A DNA stretch of 64,000 bases from Acholeplasma sp. (GTDB lineage: Bacteria > Bacillota_I > Bacilli_A > Acholeplasmatales > UBA5453), in the NCBI GenBank assembly GCA_036677365.1, contig JAVBWN010000014.1, forward strand, positions 127,137 through 191,136. Reading direction: 5' to 3'. A model generated the notes under the pieces. The model did no database searches, was not told the origin of the DNA, and saw only the letters and a program-made list of their open reading frames with translations. How positions within the stretch are numbered: the stretch's first letter is position 1; each line of letters begins with the position of its first letter. The translations under genes and the position numbers were made by a program. Positions 28,204-60,476 of the stretch are shown here, in pieces.

Positions 28204-28269
28204 TTTCATCACCTATAATTAGTGTAAACGATTTCTTTGAAAAAAACAAGAGATATCTTTTTCCCCCTA

Positions 28270-28323: not shown

Positions 28324-28348
28324 AGTATATAATGAAGAAAGGAATATT

Positions 28349-38664: not shown

Positions 38665-38695
38665 AATTACAGCAACGATGATCGAGGTTTTTACT

Positions 38696-41025: not shown

Positions 41026-41053
41026 TTGACAAATGAATCATATTCATTATAAT
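41026..41053 (+). promoter_or_regulatory. tRNA promoter
   Basis: TTGACA 41026-41031, 16 bp spacer, TATAAT 41048-41053. Confidence 0.85.
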
Positions 41054-41064
41054 AGATTATGCGT

Positions 41065-41139
41065 GGAGGCTTAGCTCAGCGGGAGAGCACTTGCTTGACG
41101 TGCAAGGGGTCATGGGTTCAATCCCCTTAGCCTCCACCA
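41065..41139 (+). tRNA. tRNA-Val(GAC)
   Basis: Acceptor GGAGGCT/AGCCTCC + ACCA, D arm GCTC/GAGC, anticodon arm CTTGC-TTGACGT-GCAAG, T loop TTCAATC. Confidence 0.95.
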
Positions 41140-41435: not shown

Positions 41436-41756
41436 ATGAAAAAAATCATCGTTTTACTCGGGCTATTGTTCTCATTCTCATTACTTGTGGGTTGCACAGA
41501 AAAAACACCTGAAGAAGAAGGTAGAACATTTACCCTCGCTGAACTTGCCAATTTTGATGGACAAAGCGGTAGACAAGCGTATGTTGCTGTCGATGGTGTG
41601 GTGTATGATGTCACGAATGCAAGCAACTGGTCGAATGGATCTCATAATGGTCAACGTTTGGCTGGTACGGATGCTTCATCTGTAATTTTGTCGAGCCCAC
41701 ATGGTAAATCTGTACTTGCTGGATTACCTGTGGTAGGGACACTGGTTACCGACTAA
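41436..41756 (+). CDS. cytochrome b5-like heme/steroid-binding lipoprotein
   Basis: Lipobox LVGC; FTLAELANFDG...AYVAVDGVVYDVT...W.NGSH.G..AGTD...SPHG. Confidence 0.88.
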   Translation: MKKIIVLLGLLFSFSLLVGCTEKTPEEEGRTFTLAELANFDGQSGRQAYVAVDGVVYDVTNASNWSNGSHNGQRLAGTDASSVILSSPHGKSVLAGLPVVGTLVTD

Positions 41757-41935: not shown

Positions 41936-41964
41936 TTTACAAGCAGGATTGATGGTGCTAAAAT
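41936..41964 (+). promoter_or_regulatory. promoter for the 6S-like RNA / acc-fab operon
   Basis: TTTACA 41936-41941, 17 bp spacer, TAAAAT 41959-41964 preceded by an extended TGn. Confidence 0.75.
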
Positions 41965-42198: not shown

Positions 42199-42660
42199 AT
42201 GACCATAAAAGAACTGCAAGCCATCATCAAAGACATCGAGAATTCGCCTTTGATGACTTTAGAGCTTGAAATGGAAGATTTCAAACTCAAATTATCGAAA
42301 AACAAATTCGAACCTACCCAAGTATTACAACCAGTTAATACCCCTGTGGCTGCCCCAGTTGCACCACAACCTTCAGCCCCAGTGTCTGAAGTTAAGCAAT
42401 CCCTAAATACACCGAAAAACACCATTAAATCCCCATTAGTCGGGACATTTTACGCATCCGCAACCATCAATGGCAATCCATATGTAGAAGTTGGACAACC
42501 TGTGAAAAAGGGCCAAGTCGTCTGCATCATTGAAGCGATGAAAATCATGAACGAAATTACCTCACCTTTCGATGGGGTCGTTAAAGAGATTTTCGTCAGA
42601 AACGGTGAGGTCGTGGGCTTTGACCACGAACTGATGGTTGTGTCGGAAAATGAAAAATAA
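42199..42660 (+). CDS. accB: acetyl-CoA carboxylase biotin carboxyl carrier protein
   Basis: SPLVGTFY, biotinylation motif EAMKIMN. Confidence 0.96.
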   Translation: MTIKELQAIIKDIENSPLMTLELEMEDFKLKLSKNKFEPTQVLQPVNTPVAAPVAPQPSAPVSEVKQSLNTPKNTIKSPLVGTFYASATINGNPYVEVGQPVKKGQVVCIIEAMKIMNEITSPFDGVVKEIFVRNGEVVGFDHELMVVSENEK

Positions 42661-44014
42661 AATCTTAATCGCGAACCGTGGCGAGATTGCTGTTAGAATC
42701 ATTCGAGCAGCCAAAGAACTCGGCATTGAAACGGTCGCCGTCTATTCCCTAGCGGATAAAGACGCACTGCATGTGAAACTCGCGGATGAAGCCGTATGTA
42801 TCGGTAAAGAAAAATCCAAAGAGTCTTATTTGAACATGAATGCAGTGTTATCAGCAGCTGTGGCTACTGGGTGTAATGCCATTCACCCAGGGTACGGTTT
42901 TTTATCCGAAAATGCGAAATTTGTCGAAATGGTGGAATCCATTCAAATCAAATTCATCGGACCCAACTCACAAACCATCCAGTTGATTGGTGATAAAGCC
43001 AGCGCAAGATCGATTGCGAAAGCCAATGGGGTGCCTGTGGTTGAAGGGTCTGATGGGATTTTGGAAGATGTCCATGAAGCCATTAAGATTGCGAAAAAAA
43101 TAGGTTATCCAGTGATGATTAAAGCCACCTCAGGTGGGGGTGGTAAAGGGATCAGTATTGCACGCTCTGACGAAGAACTCATGAGTGCCTTTGAGCGTAC
43201 CCAATTGGAAGCTTTATCTTCCTTTGGTGACAAATCACTTTATATTGAAAAATTCATTGAATCACCAAAACACATTGAAATTCAAATCATGGGGGACGCG
43301 TTTGGTAACGTCGTTCACCTCTTTGAGCGCGACTGTTCAACCCAAAGAAGAAACCAAAAGATGATTGAAGAAGCACCTTCACCAGTCCTCAATGAGATCT
43401 TAAGAAAAAAGATTGGGCAATCGGCGGTTAAACTCGCCAAAGCCATCAATTATGAAAATGCCGGAACGATGGAGTTTTTAGTCGACCCTAAAGGCAATTA
43501 TTATTTCATTGAAATGAATACAAGAATTCAAGTCGAACACCCTGTGACAGAACTCATCACTGGCATCGATTTAGTGAAAGAACAAATCAAAGTGGCTTAT
43601 GGCAAGCCATTATCCTTCAAACAAAAAGACTTGGTCATTTTAGGCCACGCGATTGAATGTCGAATCAATGCCGAAGACCCAAGTAAAGGCTTCATTCCTA
43701 CCCCAGGTAAAATCTTGAATGTATTATTCCCTGGTGGTAATGGCGTCCGCATGGATACCCATATTTACCCAGGGTATGTCGTCCCGCCATTTTACGATTC
43801 GATGTTGGCGAAACTGATTGTGTTCGCACCCAATCGTAAAGAAGCGATTAAAAAAATGCGTGTTGCATTAGAACAATTTGTCATCGAAGGCATTTCAACC
43901 AACATTGAATACCAATACTTGATCATGCATGATTTAGAATTCATCAAAGGTCAATACGATACTGGTTTTATCGCAAAATTCAACGCGAGATATGAGGCGA
44001 AGCGCAATGAGTGA
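42650..44014 (+). CDS. accC: acetyl-CoA carboxylase biotin carboxylase
   Basis: ANRGEIA, HPGYGFLSEN, GGGGKG, ERDCS, EMNTRIQVEHPVTE. Confidence 0.97.
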   Translation: MKNKILIANRGEIAVRIIRAAKELGIETVAVYSLADKDALHVKLADEAVCIGKEKSKESYLNMNAVLSAAVATGCNAIHPGYGFLSENAKFVEMVESIQIKFIGPNSQTIQLIGDKASARSIAKANGVPVVEGSDGILEDVHEAIKIAKKIGYPVMIKATSGGGGKGISIARSDEELMSAFERTQLEALSSFGDKSLYIEKFIESPKHIEIQIMGDAFGNVVHLFERDCSTQRRNQKMIEEAPSPVLNEILRKKIGQSAVKLAKAINYENAGTMEFLVDPKGNYYFIEMNTRIQVEHPVTELITGIDLVKEQIKVAYGKPLSFKQKDLVILGHAIECRINAEDPSKGFIPTPGKILNVLFPGGNGVRMDTHIYPGYVVPPFYDSMLAKLIVFAPNRKEAIKKMRVALEQFVIEGISTNIEYQYLIMHDLEFIKGQYDTGFIAKFNARYEAKRNE

Positions 44015-44879
44015 TTTCATCAGCGAACGCAAGAAGCGGATTCAGGAATTCAAAGACCGCTTTTTTGGTAAAGATAAAAGCAAACCCATCGACATTCCCG
44101 ATGGGCTCTTCGTTAAATGTGACGAGTGTGGGACAGCACTCTATGAAAAAGAGTTAGAACAAAAGTTATCGGTTTGTCCAAATTGTGGCCACCATTTTCG
44201 TATTGGTGCCCGTAAACGTATAACCATCACCGTCGATGCGGGGTCTTTTTGTGAAGTCGATCAAGACCTCATTTCAGTGAACCCTTTATCGATGCCAGAC
44301 TATGAAGTGAAAATCGCTTCAGCGAAAAAACTCACGAATCAAAATGAAGCTTTTGTTGGCGGTTCTGCCACGATTTTTGGATACCCATGTTATATTGGTG
44401 TCTTAGACAGCTATTTCATGATGGGATCCATGGGCAGTGTGGTCGGTGAAAAAGTGACCCGATTGATTGAACGTGCGACCAAAGACAAACGCCCACTCGT
44501 GTTATTTTCAGCCTCAGGCGGTGCCCGTATGCAAGAAGGGATTTTATCTTTGATGCAGATGGCGAAGACCTCAGGTGCATTATTTTATTTAAATCAAGCC
44601 GGTGTGTTATTCATCAGCATCCTAACCAACCCAACCACCGGTGGGGTTGCAGCGAGCTTTGCCTCCTTGGGGGATATCAACATCGCTGAAAAAACAGCCA
44701 CCATCGGGTTTGCTGGGGCACGTGTCATCAAACAAACCATCAAACAAGATTTACCACCACATTTCCAAACGGCAGAGTTTCAACTCGAAAAAGGACAAGT
44801 CGATTTGGTGTTATCCAGACACGACATCCGTCCAACACTCGCTAAACTCTTGTTATTCCATGGAGGTCAACATGTCTAA
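44007..44879 (+). CDS. accD: acetyl-CoA carboxylase carboxyltransferase beta
   Basis: Zn finger CDEC...[29 protein letters not shown]. Confidence 0.97.
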
Positions 44880-45693
44880 TACCGCGTGGCAACATGTTCA
44901 ACTGGCCAGACACCCAAAAAGACCGACCAGCCGTGTCTTGATCAACACGTTATTCGACGATTTTATCGAATTGCACGGGGACAGACAATTTAGAGATGAC
45001 GTGTCCATCATTGGTGGGATCGCCACTTTAAATGGAATTCCAGTCACCATCATCGCTGAAGAAAAAGGCGATTCAACCAACGATAAGATCTTACACAACT
45101 TTGGTATGCCACACCCTGAAGGCTACCGTAAAGCCTTGAGATTGATGAAACAAGCAGAAAAATTCAAACGCCCAATCATCACGATCATCGATACCCCAGG
45201 GGCTTACCCTGGTTTAGGGGCAGAAGAACGTGGGCAAGCCCAAGCCATCGCTTTAAACTTACAAGAAATGATGGGCTTGAAGGTACCTATTTTGGTTATT
45301 GTACTGTCTGAAGGGGGGTCCGGTGGTGCTTTAGCCATTGGCGTGGGTGACCATGTCATGATGTTTGAACACAGCATCTATTCGATTTTATCCCCTGAAG
45401 GCTTCGCCTCGATTTTATTCAAAGACGCCAAACAGGCGGAACACGCCGCCTCATTGATGAAACTCACAGCGAAAGATTTACTTGATTTCAATGTGATCGA
45501 TGAAATTATCCCTGAAGGCTTAGGCTTACATGAGTCTAAGGAAGGTTTATTCCATTTAAAGAGTGCCCTTTCCTTTAAAATGGCTCAAATCATCCAAGAG
45601 AAAACCAGTGTTATTTTACAAAAGAGATATCAAAAATACCGTCAAATGGGCGTATTTTTAGAAGGAGTAACCATTGAACACACACAACATTAA
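44872..45693 (+). CDS. accA: acetyl-CoA carboxylase carboxyltransferase alpha
   Basis: [38 protein letters not shown]; start at ATG 44872 after GGAGG. Confidence 0.96.
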
Positions 45694-46594
45694 GGTGGTG
45701 GCTTCTGGGAAATATGCCCCAGAAAAAATCATTACGAATAAAGATTTAGAAGCGATTGTGGAAACCTCAGACGAATGGATTCGTACGAGAACCGGGATCC
45801 ATGAAAGAAGAAAAGCAGAAACTGAAACGTCTACAGATATGGCGTATTACGCTGCATTAAACGCGATTGAAACGTATGGGTATGACAAATCCAAAATCGA
45901 TTTGGTGATCGTCGCAACCATCACGTCAGAACGTCAAACCCCCTCAGTAGCGAATTTAGTGATGGGTCGTTTGGGCCTAAGGGAAGGCATCATGAGCTTT
46001 GATGTGAATGCAGCATGCACCGGCTTTGTTTATGCCTTAGAAATTGCTTCTTCACTCATCTCAACCAACCAATACAAGAGTGCTTTGGTGGTCGGGTCTG
46101 AACGGTTATCTTCGGTTTTAGATTATACCGATCGAAACACATGTATTTTATTTGGGGATGGCGCTGGCGCGGTCATCATTGAACAAAATATAAATGCCAA
46201 AGCCTCTTACTACAATGCTTCAAAAGCCGATATGACCGACATTTTAACGGTGGATAAAACCATTCGCATGGATGGTAAAAAAGTATATGTCTTCGCCACC
46301 GATGTTGTTGAAAAAAGCATCCGACACATCCTAGAAGTCAATCACTTAACGATCGATGATATCGATGCGATCTTGCCGCACCAAGCGAATGAAAGAATCA
46401 TTCAATCGGTTGCGAAATCGATGGATATCCCGATGTCTAAGTTTGAACTCAATATCGCAACCTATGGCAACACTTCTGCAGCGAGCATCCCCATCCTCAT
46501 TGCAGAATATATGACAAAACATCAAAATAAACGGGTCCTCTTGGTAGGGTTCGGCGGTGGATTCACTTGGGGTTCCGCCATCATCGAGGTCTAA
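45674..46594 (+). CDS. fabH: 3-oxoacyl-ACP synthase III
   Basis: [34 protein letters not shown]. Confidence 0.96.
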
Positions 46595-46595
46595 T

Positions 46596-47528
46596 ATGAA
46601 AAACATCACAGAAATTTTAGGAACGAAGTACCCCATCATTCAAGGTGGGATGGCGAACATCGCGAACGCCGTGTTGGCCAGTGCCGTATCGAATGCGGGT
46701 GGTCTCGGTTTAATCGGGGCCGGTGGTTATGACGCTGAATGGGTCAGAACCGAAATCCGTAAATGTAAAGCCCTAACGAATCAACCCTTTGGGGTTAACA
46801 TCATGTTGATGAGCCCACATGCGAAAGACATCGCACAAGTGGTCATCGATGAAGGTGTAAAAATTGTCACTACAGGCGCAGGTTCCCCAGGGATTTACAT
46901 TCCTGCATGGAAAGCCGCAGGCATCAAAGTCATTCCTGTGGTACCCTCAGTCGCCTTAGCTGTGCGCATGGCACGGGCTGGGGTAGACGCCGTGATTGCT
47001 GAAGGGACTGAATCGGGAGGTCATATTGGTGAACTGACCACCATGGCACTCATCCCGCAAGTCGCTGATGCGGTTTCAATCCCAGTGATTGCTGCCGGTG
47101 GGATTGCCGATCAACGGGGTGTCCTCGCCGCTTTCGCTTTAGGTGCGAAAGGGGTTCAAGTCGGTACAGTCTTACTCGCAACCAAAGAATGCCCAATTCA
47201 TGATAACTATAAACAAATTGTGGTGGATGCGAAAGATACCGATACCGTGGTTACAGGTAGAGGGACTGGCGCACCTGTACGCGTTTTAAAAAATAAAATG
47301 GCCGTTGAATACTTAAGAATCGCTGAACAAGGGGTGCCACTCGCTGAACTTGAGAAATTGACCTTAGGTTCTTTGAGAAGAGCTGTGTTTGATGGCGATA
47401 TCGACCGTGGTTCATTCATGGCGGGTCAAATCTCTGGTTTAATTAAAGAAATCAAACCAGTTCAACAAGTCTTGTCTGAATTGTTCGATGGTGTCGACCA
47501 ATACAGACAACAATTGAGTGTGTTATGA
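46596..47528 (+). CDS. fabK: enoyl-ACP reductase II
   Basis: YPIIQGGMA, PFGVNIML, EGTESGGHIG, AAGGIAD, MAGQ. Confidence 0.92.
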   Translation: MKNITEILGTKYPIIQGGMANIANAVLASAVSNAGGLGLIGAGGYDAEWVRTEIRKCKALTNQPFGVNIMLMSPHAKDIAQVVIDEGVKIVTTGAGSPGIYIPAWKAAGIKVIPVVPSVALAVRMARAGVDAVIAEGTESGGHIGELTTMALIPQVADAVSIPVIAAGGIADQRGVLAAFALGAKGVQVGTVLLATKECPIHDNYKQIVVDAKDTDTVVTGRGTGAPVRVLKNKMAVEYLRIAEQGVPLAELEKLTLGSLRRAVFDGDIDRGSFMAGQISGLIKEIKPVQQVLSELFDGVDQYRQQLSVL

Positions 47529-48454
47529 TGGGTAAACTCGCGTTATTATTTCCAGGTCAAGGAGCACAATACGTTGGGATGGGTTTGGACTTTCCAAATC
47601 ACCAAGCGCTATTGGCATTGGCTCAGGAGGATACAGGCTTAAATATTTTACATGCCATCACAACCGGTGAAGGTTTGAATGAAACGTTATACACCCAATT
47701 ATCGGTATTTCTAACTTCCGTGCTCGCTTTGGAAGTGGTCGAATCCTTAAAACCCAAATATGAAGCGTTAACCGGGTTCAGTCTAGGGGAGTATTCAGGG
47801 TTATTCGCTTCTGGTGTATTATCGCTTGAAGACGCGATTAGACTGATCCATCAACGCTCTACTTTTATGCAAGGTGAGACACTCAAATCACAAGGTTTTA
47901 TGGCCGCGGTTTTAGGGCTAAGTGCGAGTGAAGTCGATGCGGGGTTAGCCAAAGTCACTTCCGGTCAAGTCGTTTGTGCGAACTACAATAGTCCGATTCA
48001 AACGGTCATCAGCGGCGAAGAAGTTGCATTTGTTGAGGCTGAACAAATCCTTAAAGGGTTGGGTGCGAAACGCGTGATTAAACTATCTGTATCTGGGGCA
48101 TTCCATTCCCCACTCATGAAAGAAGCCGGATTGAAACTGTCTGAATACTTAAAGACAATCACCCTTCAATCGCCAAAAGTATCTGTATACTTAAATACCA
48201 CGGCACAACCTTTAACCATCGAAACCTTAAAGGCTGAAATGACTTTACAGGTCTATAGTTCGGTGCGTTTTCAACCCACCATTGAACACATGGTGAAAGC
48301 AGGGTTTACCCACTTTTTAGAGATTGGTCCAGGTCAAGTCTTAGGACCGTTGGTTAAAAAGATTGACCCAACACTGGAAACCTTCAGTTTTGGTAAATAT
48401 AGTGAATTAGAAAACTTGAAAGGATGGTTAACAACCCATGGATTTATCCAATAA
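47525..48454 (+). CDS. fabD: malonyl-CoA:ACP transacylase
   Basis: FPGQGAQ, GFSLGEY, VSGAFHS, EIGPG. Confidence 0.95.
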   Translation: MMGKLALLFPGQGAQYVGMGLDFPNHQALLALAQEDTGLNILHAITTGEGLNETLYTQLSVFLTSVLALEVVESLKPKYEALTGFSLGEYSGLFASGVLSLEDAIRLIHQRSTFMQGETLKSQGFMAAVLGLSASEVDAGLAKVTSGQVVCANYNSPIQTVISGEEVAFVEAEQILKGLGAKRVIKLSVSGAFHSPLMKEAGLKLSEYLKTITLQSPKVSVYLNTTAQPLTIETLKAEMTLQVYSSVRFQPTIEHMVKAGFTHFLEIGPGQVLGPLVKKIDPTLETFSFGKYSELENLKGWLTTHGFIQ

Positions 48455-49181
48455 AGTAGCAATCATCACAGGCGGTGCCGCTGGGATCGGCCGCGCCATC
48501 ACCAAGACTTTGGCATCGTATGGTGCGAAAGTGGTCATCAACTACAACCGCTCTGCAGAAGCAGCGGAATCATTACAAAAAGAAATTGAATCGAGTGGTG
48601 GTGAAGCCCTCATTGTCCAAGCCGATATTTCCAAATTCGCTGACGCTGAGAAATTGGTATTGGCAACCATTGAACGCTTTGGTACCATCCATATTTTGGT
48701 TAACAACGCCGGCATCACCGATGACGCGCTCATCTTACGGATGAATGAAACCCAATTTGACCGTGTCATCGATACCAACCTTAAAGGCGTATGGAACGTG
48801 ACCAAACACGCCGCGAAAACCCTATTAAAATCCGGGTATGGTCGTGTAATCAATATCTCATCGGTTTCTGGTGTGTTAGGCAACGCTGGACAAACCAATT
48901 ACAGTGCCGCCAAAGCTGGTGTCATTGGTTTGACCAAAGCCTTAGCGAGAGAATTTGCTTCCCGAGAAGTGACTGTAAACGCAGTGGCTCCAGGGTTCAT
49001 TGAAACCGATATGACCAGAAAACTATCGGATGATATTCGCAACCAGTGGCAAGCCCAAATCCCACTTAAACGCTTTGGTCAAGATACTGAAGTTGCTGAA
49101 GTGGTGGCCTTTCTCGCAAGCCCGCGTGGGGCGTACATTACAGGCCACACATTGGAAGTTGATGGCGGGTTGGTGATGTAA
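48438..49181 (+). CDS. fabG: 3-oxoacyl-ACP reductase
   Basis: TGGAAGIG, NNAGIT, NYSAAKAG, VAPGFIETDMT. Confidence 0.95.
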   Translation: MDLSNKVAIITGGAAGIGRAITKTLASYGAKVVINYNRSAEAAESLQKEIESSGGEALIVQADISKFADAEKLVLATIERFGTIHILVNNAGITDDALILRMNETQFDRVIDTNLKGVWNVTKHAAKTLLKSGYGRVINISSVSGVLGNAGQTNYSAAKAGVIGLTKALAREFASREVTVNAVAPGFIETDMTRKLSDDIRNQWQAQIPLKRFGQDTEVAEVVAFLASPRGAYITGHTLEVDGGLVM

Positions 49182-50414
49182 ATGAAAAGAAGAGTTGTCG
49201 TTACAGGCTTAGGCTTAGTCAGCCCCCTTGGCAATACCGTAGAATCTTCATTCCAAGCGATGATTGAAGGCAAAAACGGGATTGATTTCATCACACTAGA
49301 AGATGTTACCAACTGGAAAGTGAAACTCGCTGGTGAAGTTAAAAATTTAAACTTTGAAGATTTCATCGACAGAAAAGAAGTCAAACGTTCAGACCGTTCG
49401 GTCTTACTGGCTTTGATCGCTGCCGATGAAGCTTATAAACAAGCCAAACTCGAAGGTGCAGAGATTGATCGTACCCGATTTGGACTATTCGTAGGTAGTG
49501 GGATTGGGGGGTTAAATACCATCCAAGAAGAGGTTTCTACTTACGCAACACGCGGTCAAGACCGCATGTCACCGTTTTTTATCCCAAATTCCATCATCAA
49601 CTTGATTGGTGCGAAGATTGGTATTAAATATCAAATTTATGGACCGAACTTACCACAAGTTACGGCGTGTTCAGCAGCCACCAACTCGATGGGTGAAGCG
49701 TTCAGATACATCCGTGATGGGTATTTAGACATCGCCATGACTGGCGGTGCAGAAGCGCCTGTAAACGGGATCGGTGTGGGTGGATTCGCAGCGATGAAAG
49801 CCCTCAATACATCAAATAATCGGGATAGAGCATCCATCCCATTCGATGCTGACCGTAGCGGGTTTGTCATCGCTGAAGGTGCTGGCATCCTCATTTTGGA
49901 ATCCTACGACCACGCAGTCAAACGCGGTGCACCGATTTTGGCAGAAATGGTTGGGTACGGGTCTTCGACCGATGCTTTCCATATGACCTCACCAGATGAA
50001 GAAGCCAAAGGCATCACCTTATGCTTAAAACAAGCTTTACAAGACGCAGGGATTGAACCCAAGGATGTGGGTTATATCAATGCCCACGGAACCTCGACTG
50101 TGTTGAATGACAAATTCGAGACCATGGGTATTAAAAAAGCCTTTGGACCCGCTGCCTATGATGTCAATATTTCATCGACTAAATCGATGACTGGACATGC
50201 TTTGGGTGCGGCTGGGGCGATTGAAACGATCGCTGTCATCAAAGCACTTCAAACGGGTATCATCCCTCCAACCATCAATTATCAAAATCCTGACCCGGAT
50301 TGTGACCTCAATTACACGATAAATGTCGCGGTCAAACGCGATATTCAGTATGGGATGAATATCAATATTGGTTTTGGCGGACAAAACGCTGCCATCATCT
50401 TTAAAAAGGTGTAA
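49182..50414 (+). CDS. fabF: 3-oxoacyl-ACP synthase II
   Basis: VTACS, NAHGTST, KSMTGH, GFGGQNA. Confidence 0.96.
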   Translation: MKRRVVVTGLGLVSPLGNTVESSFQAMIEGKNGIDFITLEDVTNWKVKLAGEVKNLNFEDFIDRKEVKRSDRSVLLALIAADEAYKQAKLEGAEIDRTRFGLFVGSGIGGLNTIQEEVSTYATRGQDRMSPFFIPNSIINLIGAKIGIKYQIYGPNLPQVTACSAATNSMGEAFRYIRDGYLDIAMTGGAEAPVNGIGVGGFAAMKALNTSNNRDRASIPFDADRSGFVIAEGAGILILESYDHAVKRGAPILAEMVGYGSSTDAFHMTSPDEEAKGITLCLKQALQDAGIEPKDVGYINAHGTSTVLNDKFETMGIKKAFGPAAYDVNISSTKSMTGHALGAAGAIETIAVIKALQTGIIPPTINYQNPDPDCDLNYTINVAVKRDIQYGMNINIGFGGQNAAIIFKKV

Positions 50415-50416
50415 GT

Positions 50417-50842
50417 ATGCTCAATCAAGAACAAATAAAAAACATCTTACCCCACCGTGACCCTTTTTTGATGATCGATGAAATCACTTTTCTAGAACCC
50501 CTCAAAAAAGCGATTGGGGTGAAGCATGTGAAAGTAACCGAGGATTACTTCCGTGGTCATTTTCCTTCTAAACCCGTGATGCCAGGGGTACTCATCATTG
50601 AATCCCTCGCTCAAGTCGGTGCGGTCGCTTTGTTATCCTCTGAAACTTATCAAGGGAAACTCGCGTTTTTCACAGGGATTGAATCGGCTAAATTTAGAAA
50701 AAGTGTCTTGCCGGGCGATGAACTCGTCTTAGAATGTGAAATCACGAAAGTCAGAGGACCCTTTGGTTTTGGGTCAGGCAAAGCGTATGTGAATGACGAA
50801 CTGGTATGTGAAGCCAACATCTCATTCGCTGTCGGCAGCTGA
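50417..50842 (+). CDS. fabZ: 3-hydroxyacyl-ACP dehydratase
   Basis: LPHRDPFL, FRGHFP..PVMPGVLIIESLAQ. Confidence 0.96.
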   Translation: MLNQEQIKNILPHRDPFLMIDEITFLEPLKKAIGVKHVKVTEDYFRGHFPSKPVMPGVLIIESLAQVGAVALLSSETYQGKLAFFTGIESAKFRKSVLPGDELVLECEITKVRGPFGFGSGKAYVNDELVCEANISFAVGS

Positions 50843-51357
50843 TGAGCTATACCATTTTAGAATACAAGACACTCGATTCTACCAATACATTTTTAAAGAC
50901 GTACCACAGTGCATTATCCCATTTGACATTCGTTAGAACGAGACACCAAACCGCTGGTCGAGGCCAATTCGACCGGATTTGGACATCGAATGACAATGAA
51001 AATATTTTGTGTTCAGTCTTATTAAAAGACGTCCCATTGGATAAAGCAGAACACCACAAGCGTTGGATTGAACAAGGGTTATTAACATTTTTAAAAAACA
51101 TGCAACTGATGACCACCTTCAAAGCACCCAACGATATCTATGTTGGTACTCAAAAAATATGTGGGATTCTCACTGAATCGCAAAGTGATGCAAACCAATT
51201 CACCTATGTGGTGATTGGGTTTGGACTCAATGTCAATCAAACCGAATTTGGTGGGTTAAACGCGACGTCTTTGGCACTTCAATTTAAACAAAACTTCAAT
51301 GTGGATACACTGTTTGAATCGTTAATTCAACATTTATTATCCACCTATGGTGACTAA
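50842..51357 (+). CDS. birA: biotin-protein ligase, catalytic domain only (no HTH)
   Basis: DSTN, QTAGRGQFDR.W, KAPNDI, KICGILTE, GFGLNVN. Confidence 0.9.
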   Translation: MSYTILEYKTLDSTNTFLKTYHSALSHLTFVRTRHQTAGRGQFDRIWTSNDNENILCSVLLKDVPLDKAEHHKRWIEQGLLTFLKNMQLMTTFKAPNDIYVGTQKICGILTESQSDANQFTYVVIGFGLNVNQTEFGGLNATSLALQFKQNFNVDTLFESLIQHLLSTYGD

Positions 51358-51358
51358 T

Positions 51359-51895
51359 ATGACGAAACTCAACCATTGGATTAAAATAGCCGCGATGACG
51401 GCTGTTTTATGCATATCTGTATATCTTGTTCCACCCATCGTGGTCTTTGGGGGTGTTCCATTGACCATCCAAACGTTCGTCATTTTCTTGATCGCCTATT
51501 TATTCAATAAAACAGACGCTTTTTTGACTTTAGTTTTATATCTTTTCATTGGGGTACTAGGGTTACCTGTATTTTCAGGTGGTACGGGTGGTTTATCAGC
51601 CATCTTAGGCCCGACCGGTGGATTCTTAGTGATGTTTCCCATCATCGCATATTTGATTTCTAGCTTTAAATCCAAGGACAAACACAGGGTTTATGACATC
51701 CTCATGACCTTTGGATTTGGTATTCTTTTGTTGTATGGTTTTTCAGCCTTATGGCTGGCTTATGTTTTAAACGTATCGTATTTAAACGCAATCGTAATAT
51801 TACTTCCATTTGTGCCATTAGACATCTTTAAGATTGTCATCGCACATACTGTGTACACTAAAATGCCATCCGTATACGAACTATCTACACATTAG
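51359..51895 (+). CDS. bioY: biotin transporter BioY (ECF S-component)
   Basis: VPLTIQT, GLPVFSGG.GG, GPTGGFL, PFVPLD. Confidence 0.93.
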   Translation: MTKLNHWIKIAAMTAVLCISVYLVPPIVVFGGVPLTIQTFVIFLIAYLFNKTDAFLTLVLYLFIGVLGLPVFSGGTGGLSAILGPTGGFLVMFPIIAYLISSFKSKDKHRVYDILMTFGFGILLLYGFSALWLAYVLNVSYLNAIVILLPFVPLDIFKIVIAHTVYTKMPSVYELSTH

Positions 51896-51920: not shown

Positions 51921-53336
51921 ATGACATTATCTTTACCGAAAATCATCCAAGGTGGGATGGGCGTGGGTGTGAGTTCTGCACAACTCGCCAACACCGTATC
52001 TAGAGCAGGGCAACTCGGGGTGGTCTCAGGGACCGCACTCGGTTTAACTTTCGCAAGAAGACTCATGCAAAAAGGCAATGAAGTCTATCTTGAAGCGATG
52101 AATCACTTTCCATTTAAAAAAGTGATTGAACGCATTCAACAAAAGTTTCATCTAAAAGCAGACAATGACCCATTCAAAATGGTTGAAATGCCAACGATTC
52201 ATCCCTCAGAAGATTTGAATGAACTGATTGTCGTGGCGAACTTCGTCGAGGTCCATTTGGCGAAAAAAGGCCACCAAGGGGTGGTAGGCATCAACTTTTT
52301 AGAGAAAATCCAGTTTCCAACCCTCGCGTCCATTTATGGGGCGATTTTGGCCGGTGTCGATTATATCCTGATGGGCGCTGGGATCCCCCACCGCATTCCA
52401 GATGTCATCAAAAAGTTATCGAAACATGAGGATGCGAACTTACCGATTAAAGTAGCGAATGAACACGCCAATGACATCGAGTTATCGACATTCTCACCCA
52501 AAGCATTTGCGAAAGAAGAAGCGCTGCCTGAACTGAAAAAACCTCAATTCTTAGCCATCATTGGGTCACATACGTTAGCGAATTATTTGATGAAAAGTGA
52601 GTTTGGTTCACCCGACGGTTTTGTCGTTGAATTGCCCATCGCTGGTGGGCATAACGCCCCACCCCGTGGCAATTACCCGCTCACCGAATCGGGCGAACCG
52701 ATTTATGGGGATAGAGACCAAGTGGATTTTGAAGCTTTAAAAGTACACAATAAACCGTTTTGGTTGGCTGGTGGGTTTGGTAATCCAGAAAGCCTTCAAC
52801 GGGCTTTGGTTTTAGGCGCGGTAGGTATTCAAGTTGGGACAGCGTTCGCGTTTTCCAATGAATCGGGGTTTGAAGCGGAATTGAAACAACGTGTCTTAAA
52901 ACAAGTGGTTTCTAAAAATATTCGGGTCAAAACCGACATCAAAGCCTCACCCACTGGATTCCCGTTTAAAGTTGCAGGTGTGTCTGATACCCTGTCTGAA
53001 GATGCCGCATACGCCGCACGCAAGCGTGTTTGTGATTTGGGTTATTTAAGAGAAGCTTACCGTAAAGACAATGGGTCGATTGGTTACAGATGTCCTTCTG
53101 AACCCATCGATGATTATGTCCGTAAAGGTGGTAAAATCGAAGATACCGTGGGTCGTAAGTGCTTGTGTAATGGGTTGGTTGCAGGCATCGGTTTAGGTCA
53201 AAAGCGTAAAGATGGCCGCGATGAATTACCTTTGGTGACCTCCGGGGACGATTTGGTGAACTTAACTCCACTCATCCATAAGGAAACGTTTAGTTACTCA
53301 GCGACCGATGTTTTGAAATATATCTTACAGTCCTAA
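51921..53336 (+). CDS. nitronate monooxygenase/FabK-superfamily flavoprotein, FabX-like, with C-terminal 4-Cys domain
   Basis: IIQGGMGVGVS, GAGIP, E.PIAGGH, LAGG, GIQVGTAF, SPTGFP; CDLGYL...RCPSEP...CLCNGL. Confidence 0.8.
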   Translation: MTLSLPKIIQGGMGVGVSSAQLANTVSRAGQLGVVSGTALGLTFARRLMQKGNEVYLEAMNHFPFKKVIERIQQKFHLKADNDPFKMVEMPTIHPSEDLNELIVVANFVEVHLAKKGHQGVVGINFLEKIQFPTLASIYGAILAGVDYILMGAGIPHRIPDVIKKLSKHEDANLPIKVANEHANDIELSTFSPKAFAKEEALPELKKPQFLAIIGSHTLANYLMKSEFGSPDGFVVELPIAGGHNAPPRGNYPLTESGEPIYGDRDQVDFEALKVHNKPFWLAGGFGNPESLQRALVLGAVGIQVGTAFAFSNESGFEAELKQRVLKQVVSKNIRVKTDIKASPTGFPFKVAGVSDTLSEDAAYAARKRVCDLGYLREAYRKDNGSIGYRCPSEPIDDYVRKGGKIEDTVGRKCLCNGLVAGIGLGQKRKDGRDELPLVTSGDDLVNLTPLIHKETFSYSATDVLKYILQS

Positions 53337-53342
53337 AAAAAT

Positions 53343-53380
53343 GGGTCAATACCGTTCGGTGTTGGCTTTTATTTCTTCTT
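53343..53380 (+). terminator. terminator ending the acc-fab operon
   Basis: GGTCAATAC-CGTTCG-GTGTTGGCT + T-rich tail. Confidence 0.7.
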
Positions 53381-53394
53381 TCTTAACTCGAGTG

Positions 53395-53451
53395 TTTACA
53401 TTATATCTTTGGGCAGTTATAATGATTTTGGGTGTATGAAATCGGTTTCCT
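53395..53451 (+). promoter_or_regulatory. GH3 promoter with downstream cre/LacI-type operator
   Basis: TTTACA 53395-53400, 17 bp spacer, TATAAT 53418-53423; TGAAATCGGTTTCC at 53437-53450. Confidence 0.7.
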
Positions 53452-55497: not shown

Positions 55498-55995
55498 ATG
55501 AATATGAAAGACCATCTTTGTCAGGAAAAGCTCAATCTTTTTTATGCTAGAATGGCGGAAAACAAGCAAAAGCCAGGACCGCTCATGCCAACACTACATG
55601 ACGCGCAATCGATTTTTGGTTACATTCCTTTAACCATTCAAAAGATCATTTCGGAAGAACTTGGCGAAAGCATCGCTAAGATCAATGGTGTTGTCACATT
55701 TTATGGCAACTTTTCTGTTACACCCAAAGGCGAACATACCGTTTCTGTATGCTTAGGTACTGCTTGTTATGTCAGGGGTTCTAAGAACATCATGGAAACC
55801 TTAGAAAACGAACTTAAAATCAAAGAAAAAGAAACGACCCCGGATGGACAAGTGACCCTTGTTGCGACACGTTGTATTGGCGCGTGTGGTTTAGCACCGG
55901 TTTTTTCTGTTGACGGTGCAATCCACGGCAACGCCAACGTGTCTAAAGTCAAAGACATCATCAAAGAACTTAAGGAAACCCACCATGAAGCTTAA
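55498..55995 (+). CDS. hydC: [FeFe]-hydrogenase gamma subunit (NuoE-like, 2Fe-2S)
   Basis: GVVTFY, CLGTACYVRG, RCIGACGLAPV. Confidence 0.9.
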   Translation: MNMKDHLCQEKLNLFYARMAENKQKPGPLMPTLHDAQSIFGYIPLTIQKIISEELGESIAKINGVVTFYGNFSVTPKGEHTVSVCLGTACYVRGSKNIMETLENELKIKEKETTPDGQVTLVATRCIGACGLAPVFSVDGAIHGNANVSKVKDIIKELKETHHEA

Positions 55996-56368
55996 TGAAC
56001 TCATGGCTTTGATGGATGCGAAAAGTTATACACCGACTTTGATGAAAGATAAAGACATCCATTTTGCTTTTTGTTCCGATTTGATGAGCGATGCTTTGGT
56101 CATCATGAATTCGGTGAAAGACCCAAAAATCTTAGAACACACCATCCTCATCACGGGTTTAGCGACCCAACAATCGATTCGAACGGCAGAAATGCTCGAT
56201 GTCGATGTGGTTTTATTGGTCAGAGGTAAAATCCCTTCTGAAAAAGTCATTTTACTGGCACACGAAGCGCAGGTCATGTTGTTATCGACAGAAACCACCA
56301 TGTTTAACGCGAGTGGCATTTTGTTTGAAAAAGGCATCCGCGGTGTCAAATACAATATCCAATGGTAA
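55985..56368 (+). CDS. DRTGG-domain protein 1
   Basis: AFCSDLMSDAL, LITGL, IRTAEMLD, VRGK; start at ATG 55985. Confidence 0.85.
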   Translation: MKLNELMALMDAKSYTPTLMKDKDIHFAFCSDLMSDALVIMNSVKDPKILEHTILITGLATQQSIRTAEMLDVDVVLLVRGKIPSEKVILLAHEAQVMLLSTETTMFNASGILFEKGIRGVKYNIQW

Positions 56369-56787
56369 AAGAACACCAAATCATCGCTGGCAACTTTGAC
56401 TTGGCTGGTAGAGCGTCATCTGACCTCAAGCGCTTGTTAAAGCATAGTGCCGCATACCCTCGATTATTCATCAACCGTGTCTGTTCTGCTTCCTATGAAG
56501 CCGAAATCAATGTGGTCATCCATTCGGTGGGTGGCTATATGACTTATGAAGTCGAATCCGATACGATTGAACTCAACTTTTATGACGATGGCCCTGGGAT
56601 TCCAGACATCGAACTCGCGATGAAAAAAGGGTATTCCACAGCGACACAAATCGCACACTTGAATGGCTTTGGTGCTGGGATGGGTTTGAATAACATGAAA
56701 GAACTCTCCGACAGACTGACGATTCATTCAAGTCCACGTGGTACCCATTTACAAATGAACTTTAAAGTTGGTGAACGCGATGTCTAA
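56362..56787 (+). CDS. anti-sigma-type Ser/Thr kinase (HATPase_c, RsbT/RsbW-like)
   Basis: AGRASS, YEAEINVVIH, DDGPGIPDIELAM..GYST, GFGAGMGL. Confidence 0.88.
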   Translation: MVKEHQIIAGNFDLAGRASSDLKRLLKHSAAYPRLFINRVCSASYEAEINVVIHSVGGYMTYEVESDTIELNFYDDGPGIPDIELAMKKGYSTATQIAHLNGFGAGMGLNNMKELSDRLTIHSSPRGTHLQMNFKVGERDV

Positions 56788-57115
56788 ATTATCCGCACTA
56801 CTTGAAAATACACACTATGAAGTTTTAAACCCAAGTCAGGATGACCTTTATTTTGAAGGGGTCTACGCGACAGACCTGTTATCGACAGCCATCAAGCACA
56901 TGAAACCTGATATGGCATTGATCACGATGATTTCAACCAACTCGACATTGAATCTGGCGATGATGGTGGATTTCAATCTAATCATTTTAACCAAAGACGC
57001 CGAAGTATCCGACACATTCTTACTTAAAGCAACCTTAGAAGAAATCACCATCGTAAAAACCGATTATTTAACCCATGAAGTCATCATCGACATGGTTAAG
57101 CGGGGGTTCTTATGA
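56780..57115 (+). CDS. DRTGG-domain protein 2
   Basis: GVYATDLLS...ALIT; paralogous pattern to 55985..56368. Confidence 0.75.
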   Translation: MSKLSALLENTHYEVLNPSQDDLYFEGVYATDLLSTAIKHMKPDMALITMISTNSTLNLAMMVDFNLIILTKDAEVSDTFLLKATLEEITIVKTDYLTHEVIIDMVKRGFL

Positions 57116-57789
57116 CCTATGCGTATGATTTACACATCCACAGCGTCTTATCGCCCTGTGGTGATGTCTTGATGACGCCTAACAATATCTTCAACATGGC
57201 GACTTTAAAAGGTTTAGACATCATTTCCATTACCGACCATAATTCGCTCAAACAGTTATCCACCTGTTATGAACTATCTCAAAGTTATGATTTGTTATTT
57301 ATCCCAGGGGTAGAAATCACCGTGGCTGAAGACTTCGATGTCTTGTGTTACTTCAAGTCCATCAAAGATGCACTGGCTTTTGACCTTGAATTAGAACAAG
57401 CGTTACCCAAAGTCATGAATCAACCAGAGATCTATGGTGAACAATACATCTGTGATATCCACGATGATTTCATCGCAGAAGTACCGTATCTTTTAATCCA
57501 ACCCATCCAGTGGACATTAAAGGAACTTTTGACTAAGTTGACACCATACCCACATATTTTGATTTATGCTCACCTCGATAAAAAACATCGAAGTGGTCAA
57601 GATTATGTCGAACGATACCCACTCGATGGTAAGGAATTCATTGATCCGAGTTTAAAACAAGCTAAAACCCATGTGAAAAATAGCGATGCTCACCAAATCA
57701 TCGACATATTAGAAAAAACACAAGACAATCAAATCGAACTCGATGAATTGACCATAGACGCTTTTTTTAGGTATTTCAGGCATGACTAA
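57112..57789 (+). CDS. PHP-domain phosphoesterase
   Basis: DLHIHSVLSPC, ITDHN, PGVE, AHLD, SDAH. Confidence 0.9.
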   Translation: MTYAYDLHIHSVLSPCGDVLMTPNNIFNMATLKGLDIISITDHNSLKQLSTCYELSQSYDLLFIPGVEITVAEDFDVLCYFKSIKDALAFDLELEQALPKVMNQPEIYGEQYICDIHDDFIAEVPYLLIQPIQWTLKELLTKLTPYPHILIYAHLDKKHRSGQDYVERYPLDGKEFIDPSLKQAKTHVKNSDAHQIIDILEKTQDNQIELDELTIDAFFRYFRHD

Positions 57790-58306
57790 ATTCACCGATT
57801 ATTTATACGATTTGATTCAAAACTCAATTGAAGCGAACGCCTCTCATATTGAGTTATCCATGGTACATCAAGGGTTATTTAGAGTCACCATCCGCGATAA
57901 TGGCAAAGGGATGGATGAATCAACCTTGATGAAAGTCAAAACATTCAGTTATTCTTCAAGAAAAACAAGAACAGTGGGGTTAGGCCTTTCCCTCATCCAC
58001 GATTTAACGATTCAAACCAATGGTTACTTTGAAATTACATCCAAGCTGGGTGTAGGTACGACCTTATCTTTAGGGTTTGACGACCAACACATCGACTTCC
58101 CAGAGATGGGGGATATACCTGCGTTAATAGCTGATTTATACATTCATCAAGGGGTTTCAAACTTGGTATTCACCTATGATGGATTTCAATTAGACTTTCA
58201 GTCATTGGGGCTCAATCACCCCAATAAAACATACAAACAAAGAAACCAATTATACACATACGTCCAAGACAAATTAATAGAGGTGGCAAATGAAAACACT
58301 AGATGA
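57782..58306 (+). CDS. stand-alone HATPase_c (histidine-kinase-like ATPase)
   Basis: DLIQNSIEA.A, DNGKGM, RKTRTVGLGL, S..GVGT, HID...GD; no HisKA H-box. Confidence 0.85.
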   Translation: MTKFTDYLYDLIQNSIEANASHIELSMVHQGLFRVTIRDNGKGMDESTLMKVKTFSYSSRKTRTVGLGLSLIHDLTIQTNGYFEITSKLGVGTTLSLGFDDQHIDFPEMGDIPALIADLYIHQGVSNLVFTYDGFQLDFQSLGLNHPNKTYKQRNQLYTYVQDKLIEVANENTR

Positions 58307-58661
58307 ACTCAAGCAGTTACGTGACGAATCCTTAAAAAAGATGACCATGCGTTATCAAAAGAATGGCTTTAGAATTCAAGTTGGGATGGGTACCTGTGGC
58401 ATAGCCAGTGGTGCGAGACCGATTTTGAATGCATTTTTGGAACAAATCGAACTCAGTGAATTGAAAAATGTGACGGTGACTCAAGTCGGATGTATGGGCG
58501 AATGTGCCCATGAACCGATGGCAGAAATCATCGATGAGGCGGGACAGTCTTATATTTACTGTGCCCTCACGATTCCGATGGTCAGACAAATTGTCGAAAG
58601 ACACATTGTGAACCACCAACCGATCACGAAGTATTTACTCTCCGAAAGAAAGGACAAATAA
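58290..58661 (+). CDS. hydD: [FeFe]-hydrogenase delta subunit (thioredoxin-like 2Fe-2S ferredoxin)
   Basis: VGMGTCGIASGA, VGCMGEC..EP. Confidence 0.88.
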   Translation: MKTLDELKQLRDESLKKMTMRYQKNGFRIQVGMGTCGIASGARPILNAFLEQIELSELKNVTVTQVGCMGECAHEPMAEIIDEAGQSYIYCALTIPMVRQIVERHIVNHQPITKYLLSERKDK

Positions 58662-58664
58662 ACG

Positions 58665-60476
58665 ATGTTAGAACGTGTTCAAGTCCTCATCTGTGGGGGA
58701 ACCGGGTGCATGTCTTCGCACTCGAGAGAAATTAAAAAAGCATTTGAAGACGAACTCACTTTATTGGGCATCAAATCCGAAGTCGGTTTGGTTTTAACCG
58801 GTTGTTTTGGGTTGTGTGAAAAAGGCCCTGTATTGGTGGTATACCCGGACGAAACCTTTTATTCACACGTCACTGTGGGTGATGTGAGAACCATTTGTGA
58901 AGAACATCTATTAAAAGGTCGTCCAGTTCAAAAACTCATGGTCAATGACCCGATTGCGAAAACCAAGATCAAACAAATGAGTCAATTGAAATTTTATTCA
59001 AAACAAAAACGTATTGCACTAAGAAACTGCGGACAAATCAATCCGTTAGACATCAATGAATACATCGCACGCGATGGTTACATGGCATTGGGTAAGATTT
59101 TATCGGAAATGAGCCCAGAAGCTGTCATCGATGAAGTCATCCAATCCGGCCTTAAAGGACGTGGCGGTGGGGGCTTCCCAACCGGCATGAAATGGCAGTT
59201 TGCGAGAAGTTCTCAAAGCAAGATTAAATACGTCATCTGTAACGCCGATGAGGGCGACCCAGGTGCGTTTATGGATAGAGCGATTTTAGAGGGTGACCCA
59301 CACTCGGTATTAGAAGCGATGGCCATTTGTGGCTACGCGATTGGGTCCAACCAAGGGTATATTTACGTTAGAGCCGAATACCCTGTCGCGGTTGAACGTT
59401 TATATCACGCCATCGATCAAGCAAGATCCTATGGTTTACTCGGCAAGCATATTTTTGGAACCGATTTTGAGTTTGACATCGATTTAAGACTCGGCGCGGG
59501 GGCCTTTGTGTGTGGTGAAGAAACCGCACTCATCAAGTCGATTGAAGGCTACCGCGGCATGCCTACGTCTAAACCCCCATTCCCAGCTGTAAAAGGCTTA
59601 TGGGGACAACCAACCAACGTCAATAACGTCGAAACTTTCGCCAATGTCCCAGTGATTTTCTTACGTGGGGCTGATTACTTCAAATCGATAGGTACAGCCA
59701 AATCCTCAGGAACGAAAGTATTCGCTTTAGGTGGCAAAATCAATAATACCGGTTTGGTTGAAGTACCGATGGGCACCACCTTAAGAGAAGTCGTTTTTGA
59801 CATTGGTGGTGGGATTCCTCAAAAACGTAAATTCAAAGCAATTCAAACCGGGGGACCTTCCGGTGGTTGTATTACAGAAAAAGATTTGGATACCCCGATT
59901 GATTTTGATAACTTAACCGCCCTTGGTTCGATGATGGGTTCCGGTGGGATGATCATCATGGATGAAGACAACTGTATGGTCGACGTCGCGAGATTCTATC
60001 TGGACTTTACTGTCGATGAATCGTGTGGGAAATGTACGCCATGTCGTGAAGGCACCAAACAAATGCTCGATATCTTAAACAAGATTTGCGACGGTGAAGG
60101 CACATTAGAAGACATCGATGAACTTGAACGCTTGGGTGAAATGATCAAAAAGACCTCCTTGTGTGGTTTGGGTCAAACCGCACCTAACCCAGTATTATCC
60201 ACGATTAAACACTTTAGAGCAGAATACATCGCCCATGTTGTCGATAAAACTTGTCCAGCAGGTGTGTGTTCAAACCTTACTCACTTCGTCATTCATGACA
60301 ACTGTATTGGTTGTACAAAATGTGCGAAGAACTGCCCAGTCAACGCGATTTCGGGTTGGCCAAAACAAATCCATATATTGGACCAAGAATTGTGTATCAA
60401 GTGTGGCGCATGTAAGAAAGCTTGTCCAGTCGGTGCCATCACCTCTGAACCATTACATAAAGGAGTATCCCTATGA
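58665..60476 (+). CDS. hydB: [FeFe]-hydrogenase beta subunit (NuoF-like, FMN/NADH)
   Basis: N-terminal CGGTGC/GCFGLC, GRGGGGFPTG, ADEGDPGAFMDR, CGEETAL, GGPSGG, ESCGKCTPCREG, two C-terminal 4Fe-4S motifs. Confidence 0.95.
   Translation: MLERVQVLICGGTGCMSSHSREIKKAFEDELTLLGIKSEVGLVLTGCFGLCEKGPVLVVYPDETFYSHVTVGDVRTICEEHLLKGRPVQKLMVNDPIAKTKIKQMSQLKFYSKQKRIALRNCGQINPLDINEYIARDGYMALGKILSEMSPEAVIDEVIQSGLKGRGGGGFPTGMKWQFARSSQSKIKYVICNADEGDPGAFMDRAILEGDPHSVLEAMAICGYAIGSNQGYIYVRAEYPVAVERLYHAIDQARSYGLLGKHIFGTDFEFDIDLRLGAGAFVCGEETALIKSIEGYRGMPTSKPPFPAVKGLWGQPTNVNNVETFANVPVIFLRGADYFKSIGTAKSSGTKVFALGGKINNTGLVEVPMGTTLREVVFDIGGGIPQKRKFKAIQTGGPSGGCITEKDLDTPIDFDNLTALGSMMGSGGMIIMDEDNCMVDVARFYLDFTVDESCGKCTPCREGTKQMLDILNKICDGEGTLEDIDELERLGEMIKKTSLCGLGQTAPNPVLSTIKHFRAEYIAHVVDKTCPAGVCSNLTHFVIHDNCIGCTKCAKNCPVNAISGWPKQIHILDQELCIKCGACKKACPVGAITSEPLHKGVSL

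Follow-up and report, generated by a model that had tools for sequence, protein, structure and literature searches.

Here we analyse a 64,000-nucleotide (nt) stretch of the genome of an Acholeplasma sp. (assembly GCA_036677365.1, contig JAVBWN010000014.1), hereafter the window, and within it a gene at 51921..53336 on the + strand. Translation and Pfam comparison assign to this gene a 471-residue flavoprotein of the nitronate monooxygenase (NMO) fold with a C-terminal domain that bears four cysteines (Cys). The gene stands at the end of an operon for acetyl-CoA carboxylase and type II fatty acid synthesis (FAS II), and its product represents a real, uncharacterised subfamily of the FabX/FabK superfamily. 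The frame comprises 471 codons free of stops, with an AAGGA ribosome-binding site 7 nt 5' of its ATG. One entry of the public protein set (P0002) is 100% identical across all 471 amino acids (aa), and relatives that are 78-87% identical agree with it in length and start Met (alignment A1).

An earlier note on this DNA had described a 471-aa flavin mononucleotide (FMN) barrel protein with QGGMGVGVS, E.P.AGGH and CDLGYL-RCPSEP-CLC motifs, and all of them are found in the translation. QGGMGVGVS (residues 10-18; 51948..51974, +) is an N-terminal FMN-site motif that the protein has in common with FabX. ELPIAGGH (E237-H244; 52629..52652, +) provides, by alignment to FabX, the Glu at the FMN/substrate site and the catalytic His. 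SPTGFPFKV (residues 343-351; 52947..52973, +) is invariant in alignment A1 and aligns to the FabX stretch that holds Y277. Both E237 and H244 are kept in 120/120 close homologues and in 68/68 proteins taken from genomic loci, and H244 also in 144/145 representatives in which that position is occupied. Q304 is kept in 120/120 close homologues and T307 in 113/120, with Ser in the other 7.

The Pfam NMO model (PF03060) matches the protein in two stretches with a modest 63.6 bits (cut-off 28). On sequence grounds this match identifies a fold family and not a nitronate-oxidising activity. Among NCBIfam models none reaches its cut-off; the sole match, to the FabK model TIGR03151, gives 41.8 bits against a cut-off of 453.1 and covers only residues 279-330. 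The AlphaFold2 model of the protein has a predicted local distance difference test score (pLDDT) of 95.6 and a predicted template modelling score (pTM) of 0.95.

The protein contains exactly four Cys, all of them in the C-terminal domain (residues 335-471, 137 residues; 52923..53333, +): C371 in CDLGYL (53031-53033, +), C391 in RCPSEP (53091-53093, +), and C414 and C416 in CLC (53160-53162 and 53166-53168, +), with the spacing C-x19-C-x22-C-x-C. All four are kept in 323/325 homologues covering the sites, that is, in 120/120 close homologues, 135/137 covering representatives (150 examined) and 68/68 locus proteins; the two deviating representatives read CCCW and CCDC. In the model of the whole protein, CLC lies at the N-terminus of helix 415-422, and the C-terminal 137 residues modelled alone reach a pLDDT of 92.6. 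A fold search of this domain against the PDB gave nothing significant (best E 0.46, with FabX absent among the 50 entries listed), and a sequence search of the PDB with its last 132 residues found nothing at E <= 10. Since neither search finds a match, the iron-sulfur (Fe-S) subdomain of FabX included, the four-Cys domain is, as judged from sequence and predicted structure, private to this family.

Thirteen genes on the same strand run from accB (42199) to the four-Cys gene, which is the last cistron, in the order accB, accC, accD, accA, fabH, fabK, fabD, fabG, fabF, fabZ, biotin-protein ligase, bioY and the four-Cys gene. Those from accB to bioY occupy 42199..51895 (+) and are separated by -23 to +2 nt, followed by a gap of 25 nt between bioY and the four-Cys gene. 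The acc, fabH, fabD, fabG and fabF genes were named from reading their translations, and fabK, fabZ, the ligase and bioY from Pfam/NCBIfam matches. A normal fabK had been reported upstream, and fabK (46596-47528, +) is indeed a full-length TIGR03151 match, with 447.9 bits just below the 453.1-bit cut-off. We considered the four-Cys gene as a recent paralogue of this fabK and rejected the idea, as BLASTP aligns only 73 residues of the two proteins (32% identity, E 2e-5) and, at the N-terminus, another stretch of 20. A recent insertion was rejected on composition, since the GC content of the gene (0.456) and its GC content at third codon positions (0.445) lie inside the range of the fab genes.

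The biotin-protein ligase gene (50842-51357, +) overlaps bioY (51347-51895, +) by 11 nt. With both genes, the operon bundles biotin uptake and ligation with acetyl-CoA carboxylase and FAS II. The ligase is unusually short; its 171 aa align only to positions 5-168 of the birA_ligase model, which has 235 positions. No FabT/FapR-type regulator was seen in or beside the fab operon.

The operon ends with the four-Cys gene, as had been proposed: a terminator-like hairpin of 11 pairs followed by a T-run (53343..53368, +; hairpin scan) lies 7 nt past the stop codon, and a near-consensus promoter (53395-53423; consensus scan) precedes the next gene, which encodes a glycoside hydrolase family 3 (GH3) glycosidase. 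The hairpin scan detects no terminator-like site in the 25-nt gap between bioY and the four-Cys gene. Weaker hairpins of 6 pairs occur on the + strand inside bioY (51629-51648 and 51743-51758), the second of them with 4 G-C pairs, equal to the hairpin at 53343. A candidate promoter of the operon lies 5' of accB (41936..41964, +), where pattern matching finds TTTACA, a 17-nt spacer, an extended -10 TG and TAAAAT, a 10/12 match to the consensus. The 25-nt gap with its ribosome-binding site, together with no strong terminator before the four-Cys gene and a strong one after it, favours cotranscription of this gene with the FAS II genes.

The statement that the operon contains no fabA, fabM or desaturase gene holds for the whole window, as the FabA, FabM (crotonase) and desaturase families have no member among the open reading frames (ORFs) scanned across its 64 kb. 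Its single FabZ scores 166.5 bits on the FabZ model (cut-off 113) and 27.6 bits on the FabA model (cut-off 124). An acpP gene was not found within the window.

To place the protein among solved structures, we compared it with FabX and FabK through sequence and fold searches of the PDB. With the single sequence as query, phmmer gives E 2.5e-11 for FabX and 1.7e-5 for FabK; with the family profile, the values are 1.1e-19 and 1.1e-16. Foldseek with the predicted model gives E 2.3e-16 to 3.4e-15 for FabX, at template modelling (TM) scores of 0.71-0.75 on FabX's length, and E 3.5e-12 for FabK. The best PDB fold matches are the FabX entries 9lt8, 9lt5 and 7e1q. By sequence and by modelled fold, FabX is the nearest solved relative of the protein, before FabK.

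As described in passages of PMC8626469, FabX of Helicobacter pylori (HP0773; PDB 7e1q, 9lt5) is an FMN/[4Fe-4S] enzyme, a decanoyl-acyl carrier protein (ACP) dehydrogenase / trans-2 to cis-3 isomerase, which converts decanoyl-ACP to cis-3-decenoyl-ACP and is needed for unsaturated fatty acid synthesis. FMN is contacted by E175, Q240, T243 and the backbones of G25, G180 and G221, and also by G22 and G23; His182 is the catalytic residue, G25/V26 line the acyl tunnel and Y277 contacts pantetheine. The [4Fe-4S] cluster is held by C300, C304, C308 and C320 in a C-terminal subdomain (267-363), and this Fe-S domain occupies the position of NAD(P)H in FabK. Docking of ACP involves the positively charged helix alpha7 together with R164 and T130. 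UfaA (NGO1024) is described as the FabX homologue in Neisseria. The survey of FabX homologues in PMC8626469 used a 50% identity threshold, which would exclude the family described here.

The FabX numbering in our alignment is confirmed by E175, G180 and H182, which fall as published. At the FMN contacts and the catalytic base, E237, G242, H244, G285, Q304 and T307 of the four-Cys protein correspond to E175, G180, H182, G221, Q240 and T243 of FabX. Along the pantetheine-binding region and acyl tunnel, G14/V15, F63, G154, I213 and F347 correspond to G25/V26, Y75, G127, I147 and Y277. QGGMGVGVS aligns with FabX residues 21-29, which include G22, G23, G25 and V26, and residues 40-72, after strand 2, align with FabX in a region where BLASTP finds no alignment to the FabK of the operon. 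By these matches, the protein is FabX-like in its flavin site and catalytic base and in a part of its thioester-binding tunnel. The proposal of a distinct subfamily within the FabK/FabX (NMO) fold is thereby borne out, with FabX nearest, the FMN residues and the His kept, and the four Cys near-invariant.

The family is large: among representatives at 50% identity, an exhaustive HMMER search gives 2010 matches at E <= 1e-3, of which 1159 reach E <= 1e-10 and 483 reach E <= 1e-30. Their sources include Acholeplasmataceae, other Bacillota, Nitriliruptoraceae, Phycisphaerales, Opitutales, Verrucomicrobia and Nitrospinota, and a scan of genomes adds Acidobacteriota, Gemmatimonadota, Chloroflexota, Deinococcota, Armatimonadota and a few Pseudomonadota. 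Databases name the members only 'nitronate monooxygenase' or 'YrpB', and the ESM Atlas clusters that match the protein are all named 'nitronate monooxygenase'. Members from Acholeplasmatales are 52-60% identical to those from Planctomycetota/Verrucomicrobiota. A FastTree phylogeny of 93 members shows 16 changes of phylum label, where the minimum is 13 and the mean of shuffled labels 39.5, and places our protein in a well-supported Acholeplasmataceae/Bacillota/Nitriliruptoraceae clade. Because the tree largely tracks phyla, the family looks old and mostly vertically inherited. A threonyl-tRNA synthetase of the window is 95% identical to its counterpart in Paracholeplasma manati, which makes the host a Paracholeplasma-like member of the Acholeplasmataceae.

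We used the genome scan, run with alignment A1, to survey gene neighbourhoods around the best 80 of at least 600 pattern matches, taking up to 10 kb on each side. The 80 loci, none of which among the matches listed is from Acholeplasmatales, yielded 1212 ORFs, and the family member itself was recovered in 69 of the 80 loci. Members of the family usually sit alone, in changing neighbourhoods. Links to FAS II occur in three distant clades. One is the window. The second is a pair of loci (L042 and L052), nested among Acidobacteriota in the tree, in which a FabI-like gene follows directly downstream on the same strand, with about 300 bits on FabI models, below the cut-offs. The third is P0124, in which the family domain is fused to a FabD/MdcH-like acyltransferase and which groups with Verrucomicrobiota. 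A separate fusion joins the family domain to an EF2568-type cysteine desulfurase family protein (P0393; TIGR01977, 399 bits, cut-off 377), and a homologue of this desulfurase lies 2 kb upstream of the family gene in L028 (6542-7771). One locus has a NifU-like neighbour (L034) and two have ferredoxin-type neighbours (L011 and L064). We take the cysteine desulfurase, NifU-like and ferredoxin-type links as mild hints of an Fe-S cofactor. One long member, P0145 (616 aa), carries a low-complexity tail rich in Ala, Ser and Val.

Other genes of the window were also inspected. A TetR-family regulator gene (27595-28212, minus strand) is divergent to a dehydratase/Etf set, which extends to 31656 and encodes a 138-aa MaoC-type dehydratase, an acyl-CoA dehydrogenase, EtfB and EtfA. 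The set at 27595-31656 could be an enoyl-CoA/acyl-CoA redox module and may also supply an electron partner to the four-Cys protein. A HydABC-type [FeFe] hydrogenase cluster occupies 55498-62233, with a NuoE-like 2Fe-2S protein, a NuoF-like subunit and the HydA large subunit, and small HATPase_c-domain and PHP-domain ORFs lie among its genes. The protein encoded at 41436-41756, just 5' of the acc-fab operon, has 106 aa. It combines a signal peptide of lipoprotein-like type with a heme/steroid-binding domain that resembles cytochrome b5 (Pfam E 7.9e-6). Further upstream, a tRNA gene (41065-41136; Rfam 63.2 bits) stands directly behind a 12/12 match to a sigma-70-type promoter (41026-41053), and a VTC-domain protein adjoins a DUF4956 protein at 38678-40092.

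We then considered what the protein may do, and we tentatively read it as an oxidoreductase of acyl thioesters, FabX-like and tied to FAS II. That it acts on acyl-ACP is plausible. In this reading the protein would be co-expressed with FAS II and, as an FMN oxidoreductase, would act on the alpha,beta carbons of a thioester-bound acyl chain, with acyl-ACP as the most likely substrate. An Fe-S cluster bound by the four Cys may relay single electrons between FMN and a partner such as ferredoxin or an electron transfer flavoprotein (ETF), analogous to the [4Fe-4S] cluster of FabX, which replaces the NAD(P)H site of FabK. Candidate partners encoded in the window are the acyl-CoA dehydrogenase/EtfAB set and the HydABC-type hydrogenase with its ferredoxin-like modules. 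The reaction could be a FabX-like dehydrogenation/isomerisation that feeds unsaturated fatty acids, or a ferredoxin-linked enoyl reduction. The former fits better than a redundant reductase, because a FabK is already encoded in the operon and a FabI-like neighbour is found elsewhere. A role in making unsaturated fatty acids is speculative and takes about half of the weight that we give to the FabX-like reading. In Enterococcus faecalis, according to PMC9671860, the genes for unsaturated fatty acids cluster with a dedicated enoyl reductase.

Several observations weigh against a FabX-like enzyme of FAS II, and the first group concerns the protein itself. Identity to FabX is only 19-20%. The docking helix of FabX (150-167) has seven Lys/Arg, and the aligned stretch of our protein (216-227) has one Lys; the family consensus contains no conserved basic residue there, and T130 of FabX aligns to H157, a variable position. 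The ACP-docking feature of FabX (alpha7, R164 and T130) is thus not conserved in the protein. A complex predicted for the protein (alignment A2) with the ACP of Bacillus subtilis (ACP_BACSU), a stand-in as no acpP was found in the window, received a score of 0.02 (mark, 0.32), which speaks in neither direction on binding. The Cys domain is, by sequence and model, without detectable likeness to the Fe-S subdomain of FabX or to any other PDB entry, and its Cys spacing, unlike that of FabX, leaves room for a structural zinc site.

The second group concerns the distribution and the neighbourhoods of the family. By phmmer, homologues of fabF, fabZ, accA/C/D, birA and bioY lie within 10 kb of the family gene in 0/80 loci, those of fabH in 2/80 (one weak), fabD in 2/80 and accB in 1/80 (weak), and FabG-like short-chain dehydrogenases/reductases in 6/80. 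The suggestion that the FAS II context gives a functional clue for the family as a whole is largely not borne out by these counts. The largest neighbour family occurs in only 8/80 loci, and Pfam assigns the 133 genes immediately beside the family gene in 69 loci to a diverse set of families. The two loci with a FabI-like gene represent one lineage, since their family proteins are 81% identical. Other contexts involve unrelated enzymes: P0394 is fused to a tyrosine phenol-lyase (723.8 bits, cut-off 720.7), a tryptophanase-type gene adjoins the family gene in L032 (8449-9885), and P0126 (799 aa) carries an S-adenosylmethionine-dependent methyltransferase domain C-terminal to the family domain. 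The family is present in aerobes, among them the cultured planctomycetes Rhodopirellula, Novipirellula and Aeoliella. It is also found in a Yoonia metagenome-assembled genome (MAG), and alphaproteobacteria have FabA/FabB. Finally, classical work on Acholeplasma laidlawii reportedly found that its de novo fatty acids are saturated only; this point and the FabA/FabB of alphaproteobacteria also speak against a role in unsaturated fatty acid synthesis in this lineage.

Many of these observations would suit a housekeeping flavoenzyme with a non-lipid substrate, for instance a small nitronate, an enamine or a quinone-type compound, whose place in the operon would reflect a lineage accident or loose co-regulation. 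We regard this as the main rival reading and a substantial possibility. It agrees with the usually solitary position of the family gene, with neighbourhoods that vary across phyla, and with the occurrence of members in aerobes and in the Yoonia MAG, and strong conservation across phyla combined with a phylum-tracking tree points to one core function in organisms of very different lipid biology. The pyridoxal phosphate (PLP)-dependent beta-lyases of the P0394 fusion and the L032 locus, a RidA-domain neighbour in L019, the lack of conservation of the FabX docking helix and the source names, which are only 'nitronate monooxygenase' or 'YrpB', point the same way. However, the nearest solved relative, FabX, works on acyl-ACP and has the pantetheine and acyl-tunnel positions in common with our protein, and there are three independent associations with FAS II. 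The gene is also tightly packed in its operon, without a promoter or terminator of its own, and the PLP-lyase links are no less sporadic than those to FAS II.

A second alternative concerns the cofactor only and would fit any of the proposed functions: the four Cys may hold structural zinc and not an Fe-S cluster, which we consider less likely than not. The predicted secondary structure places the ligands in a beta-hairpin region and at a helix N-terminus, an arrangement common for zinc sites; the domain resembles no known Fe-S fold, and the Cys spacing departs from the FabX pattern. Yet the C-terminal subdomain of the closest solved relative binds a [4Fe-4S] cluster, and CLC lies at a helix N-terminus, like C320 of FabX. 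Moreover, cysteine desulfurase/NifU-type genes are fused or adjacent to a few family members, and a Pro follows one of the Cys (RCPSEP), Cys-Pro being frequent among ferredoxin-type ligands.

In a third alternative, the protein would serve as a second enoyl-ACP reductase, analogous to FabK but fed by reduced ferredoxin through a Cys-bound cluster and not by NAD(P)H. Such an enzyme would have the FabK/FabX fold and the catalytic His, its cluster would parallel the FabX Fe-S domain at the NAD(P)H position of FabK (PMC8626469, in passages), and it would suit a fermenting, hydrogenase-bearing anaerobe, in which the HydABC-type [FeFe] hydrogenase and the acyl-CoA dehydrogenase/EtfAB genes of the window imply that low-potential carriers are available. 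In addition, a passage of PMC11091888 states that overexpression of the FabX homologue of Fusobacterium nucleatum raises the minimal inhibitory concentration of a FabK inhibitor 8-fold. A second reductase is nevertheless improbable, as the step is already covered by the FabK of the operon and by the FabI-like gene in L042 and L052, the score of our protein on the FabK model is far below its cut-off, and the family is common among aerobes.

Together, these results support the earlier interpretation in part. The fold subfamily, the kinship with FabX, the conserved Cys and the place in the operon stand; the generality of the FAS II context, a Cys domain of the FabX type and the docking helix do not. 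In a full-text literature search we found no study of this family of about 470 aa with four Cys, and the published FabX work, as far as passages of PMC8626469, PMC11091888 and PMC11300592 go, concerns H. pylori, F. nucleatum and Bacteroides. A large, strongly conserved and very widespread family is labelled only 'nitronate monooxygenase'. In Helicobacter, its closest solved relative introduces the double bond of unsaturated fatty acids, and the operon described here lacks a known double-bond enzyme.

If the protein acts on acyl-ACP, it would bring a new cofactor architecture to FAS II and would be a candidate for missing steps in unsaturated fatty acid synthesis. A further speculation, a long shot in our estimate, would make the four-Cys family a second and widespread kind of FMN/Fe-S acyl-ACP dehydrogenase-isomerase that parallels FabX but is equipped with an electron-transfer domain of its own. 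Such an enzyme could run without oxygen through a ferredoxin or ETF partner. It would also bear on a question raised for anaerobes in a passage of a 2009 Clostridium study (PMC2700279), which describes the double-bond enzyme of such organisms as unknown. If the protein does not act on acyl-ACP, the four-Cys domain, without a structural relative, would still be a well-defined target for work on structure and cofactor.

Among known systems, FabX is closest to the four-Cys protein. The two have in common an NMO-type TIM barrel, the GGMGVGxS motif, the FMN contacts (E, Q, T and Gly backbones), the catalytic His, an extra segment after strand 2 that lines the acyl tunnel, an SPxG(Y/F)P stretch and a C-terminal extension bearing four Cys. 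They differ in the spacing of these Cys, as the earlier note had pointed out: C-x19-C-x22-C-x-C in our protein does not reproduce the [4Fe-4S] arrangement C-x3-C-x3-C-x11-C of FabX (C300/C304/C308/C320). Our protein is also about 100 residues longer.

FabK has in common with the protein the fold, FMN, the catalytic GGH motif and the context of a FAS II operon. However, the FabK of the operon has QGGMA in place of QGGMGVGVS, and only the four-Cys protein has the FabX-like N-terminal segment and the C-terminal Cys domain, which is without BLASTP likeness to FabK. Nitronate monooxygenases and the NADH:quinone reductase PA1024 have PF03060 in common with the protein and supply the generic name under which databases file the family. 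They match it more weakly than FabX or FabK do (phmmer E at least 3e-3, Foldseek E about 1e-9), and no Cys domain was noticed in the listed PDB entries of nitronate monooxygenases, unlike in our protein.

PfaD and the enoyl reductases of trans-acyltransferase (trans-AT) polyketide synthases (TIGR02814; PDB 6lkc, 4cw5) resemble the protein in their size of 440-530 aa and in combining an NMO barrel with extra domains, and they act on ACP-bound enoyl groups. Yet TIGR02814 does not match the protein at E <= 0.01, the Foldseek TM scores are low (0.45-0.49 on the length of our protein), and its C-terminal domain alone has no fold match to PfaD-type entries. Since the protein departs from FabX in the Fe-S motif, the docking helix and overall identity, and from FabK in its score on the FabK model, we place it as a separate variant among enzymes of the FabK/FabX/NMO kind.

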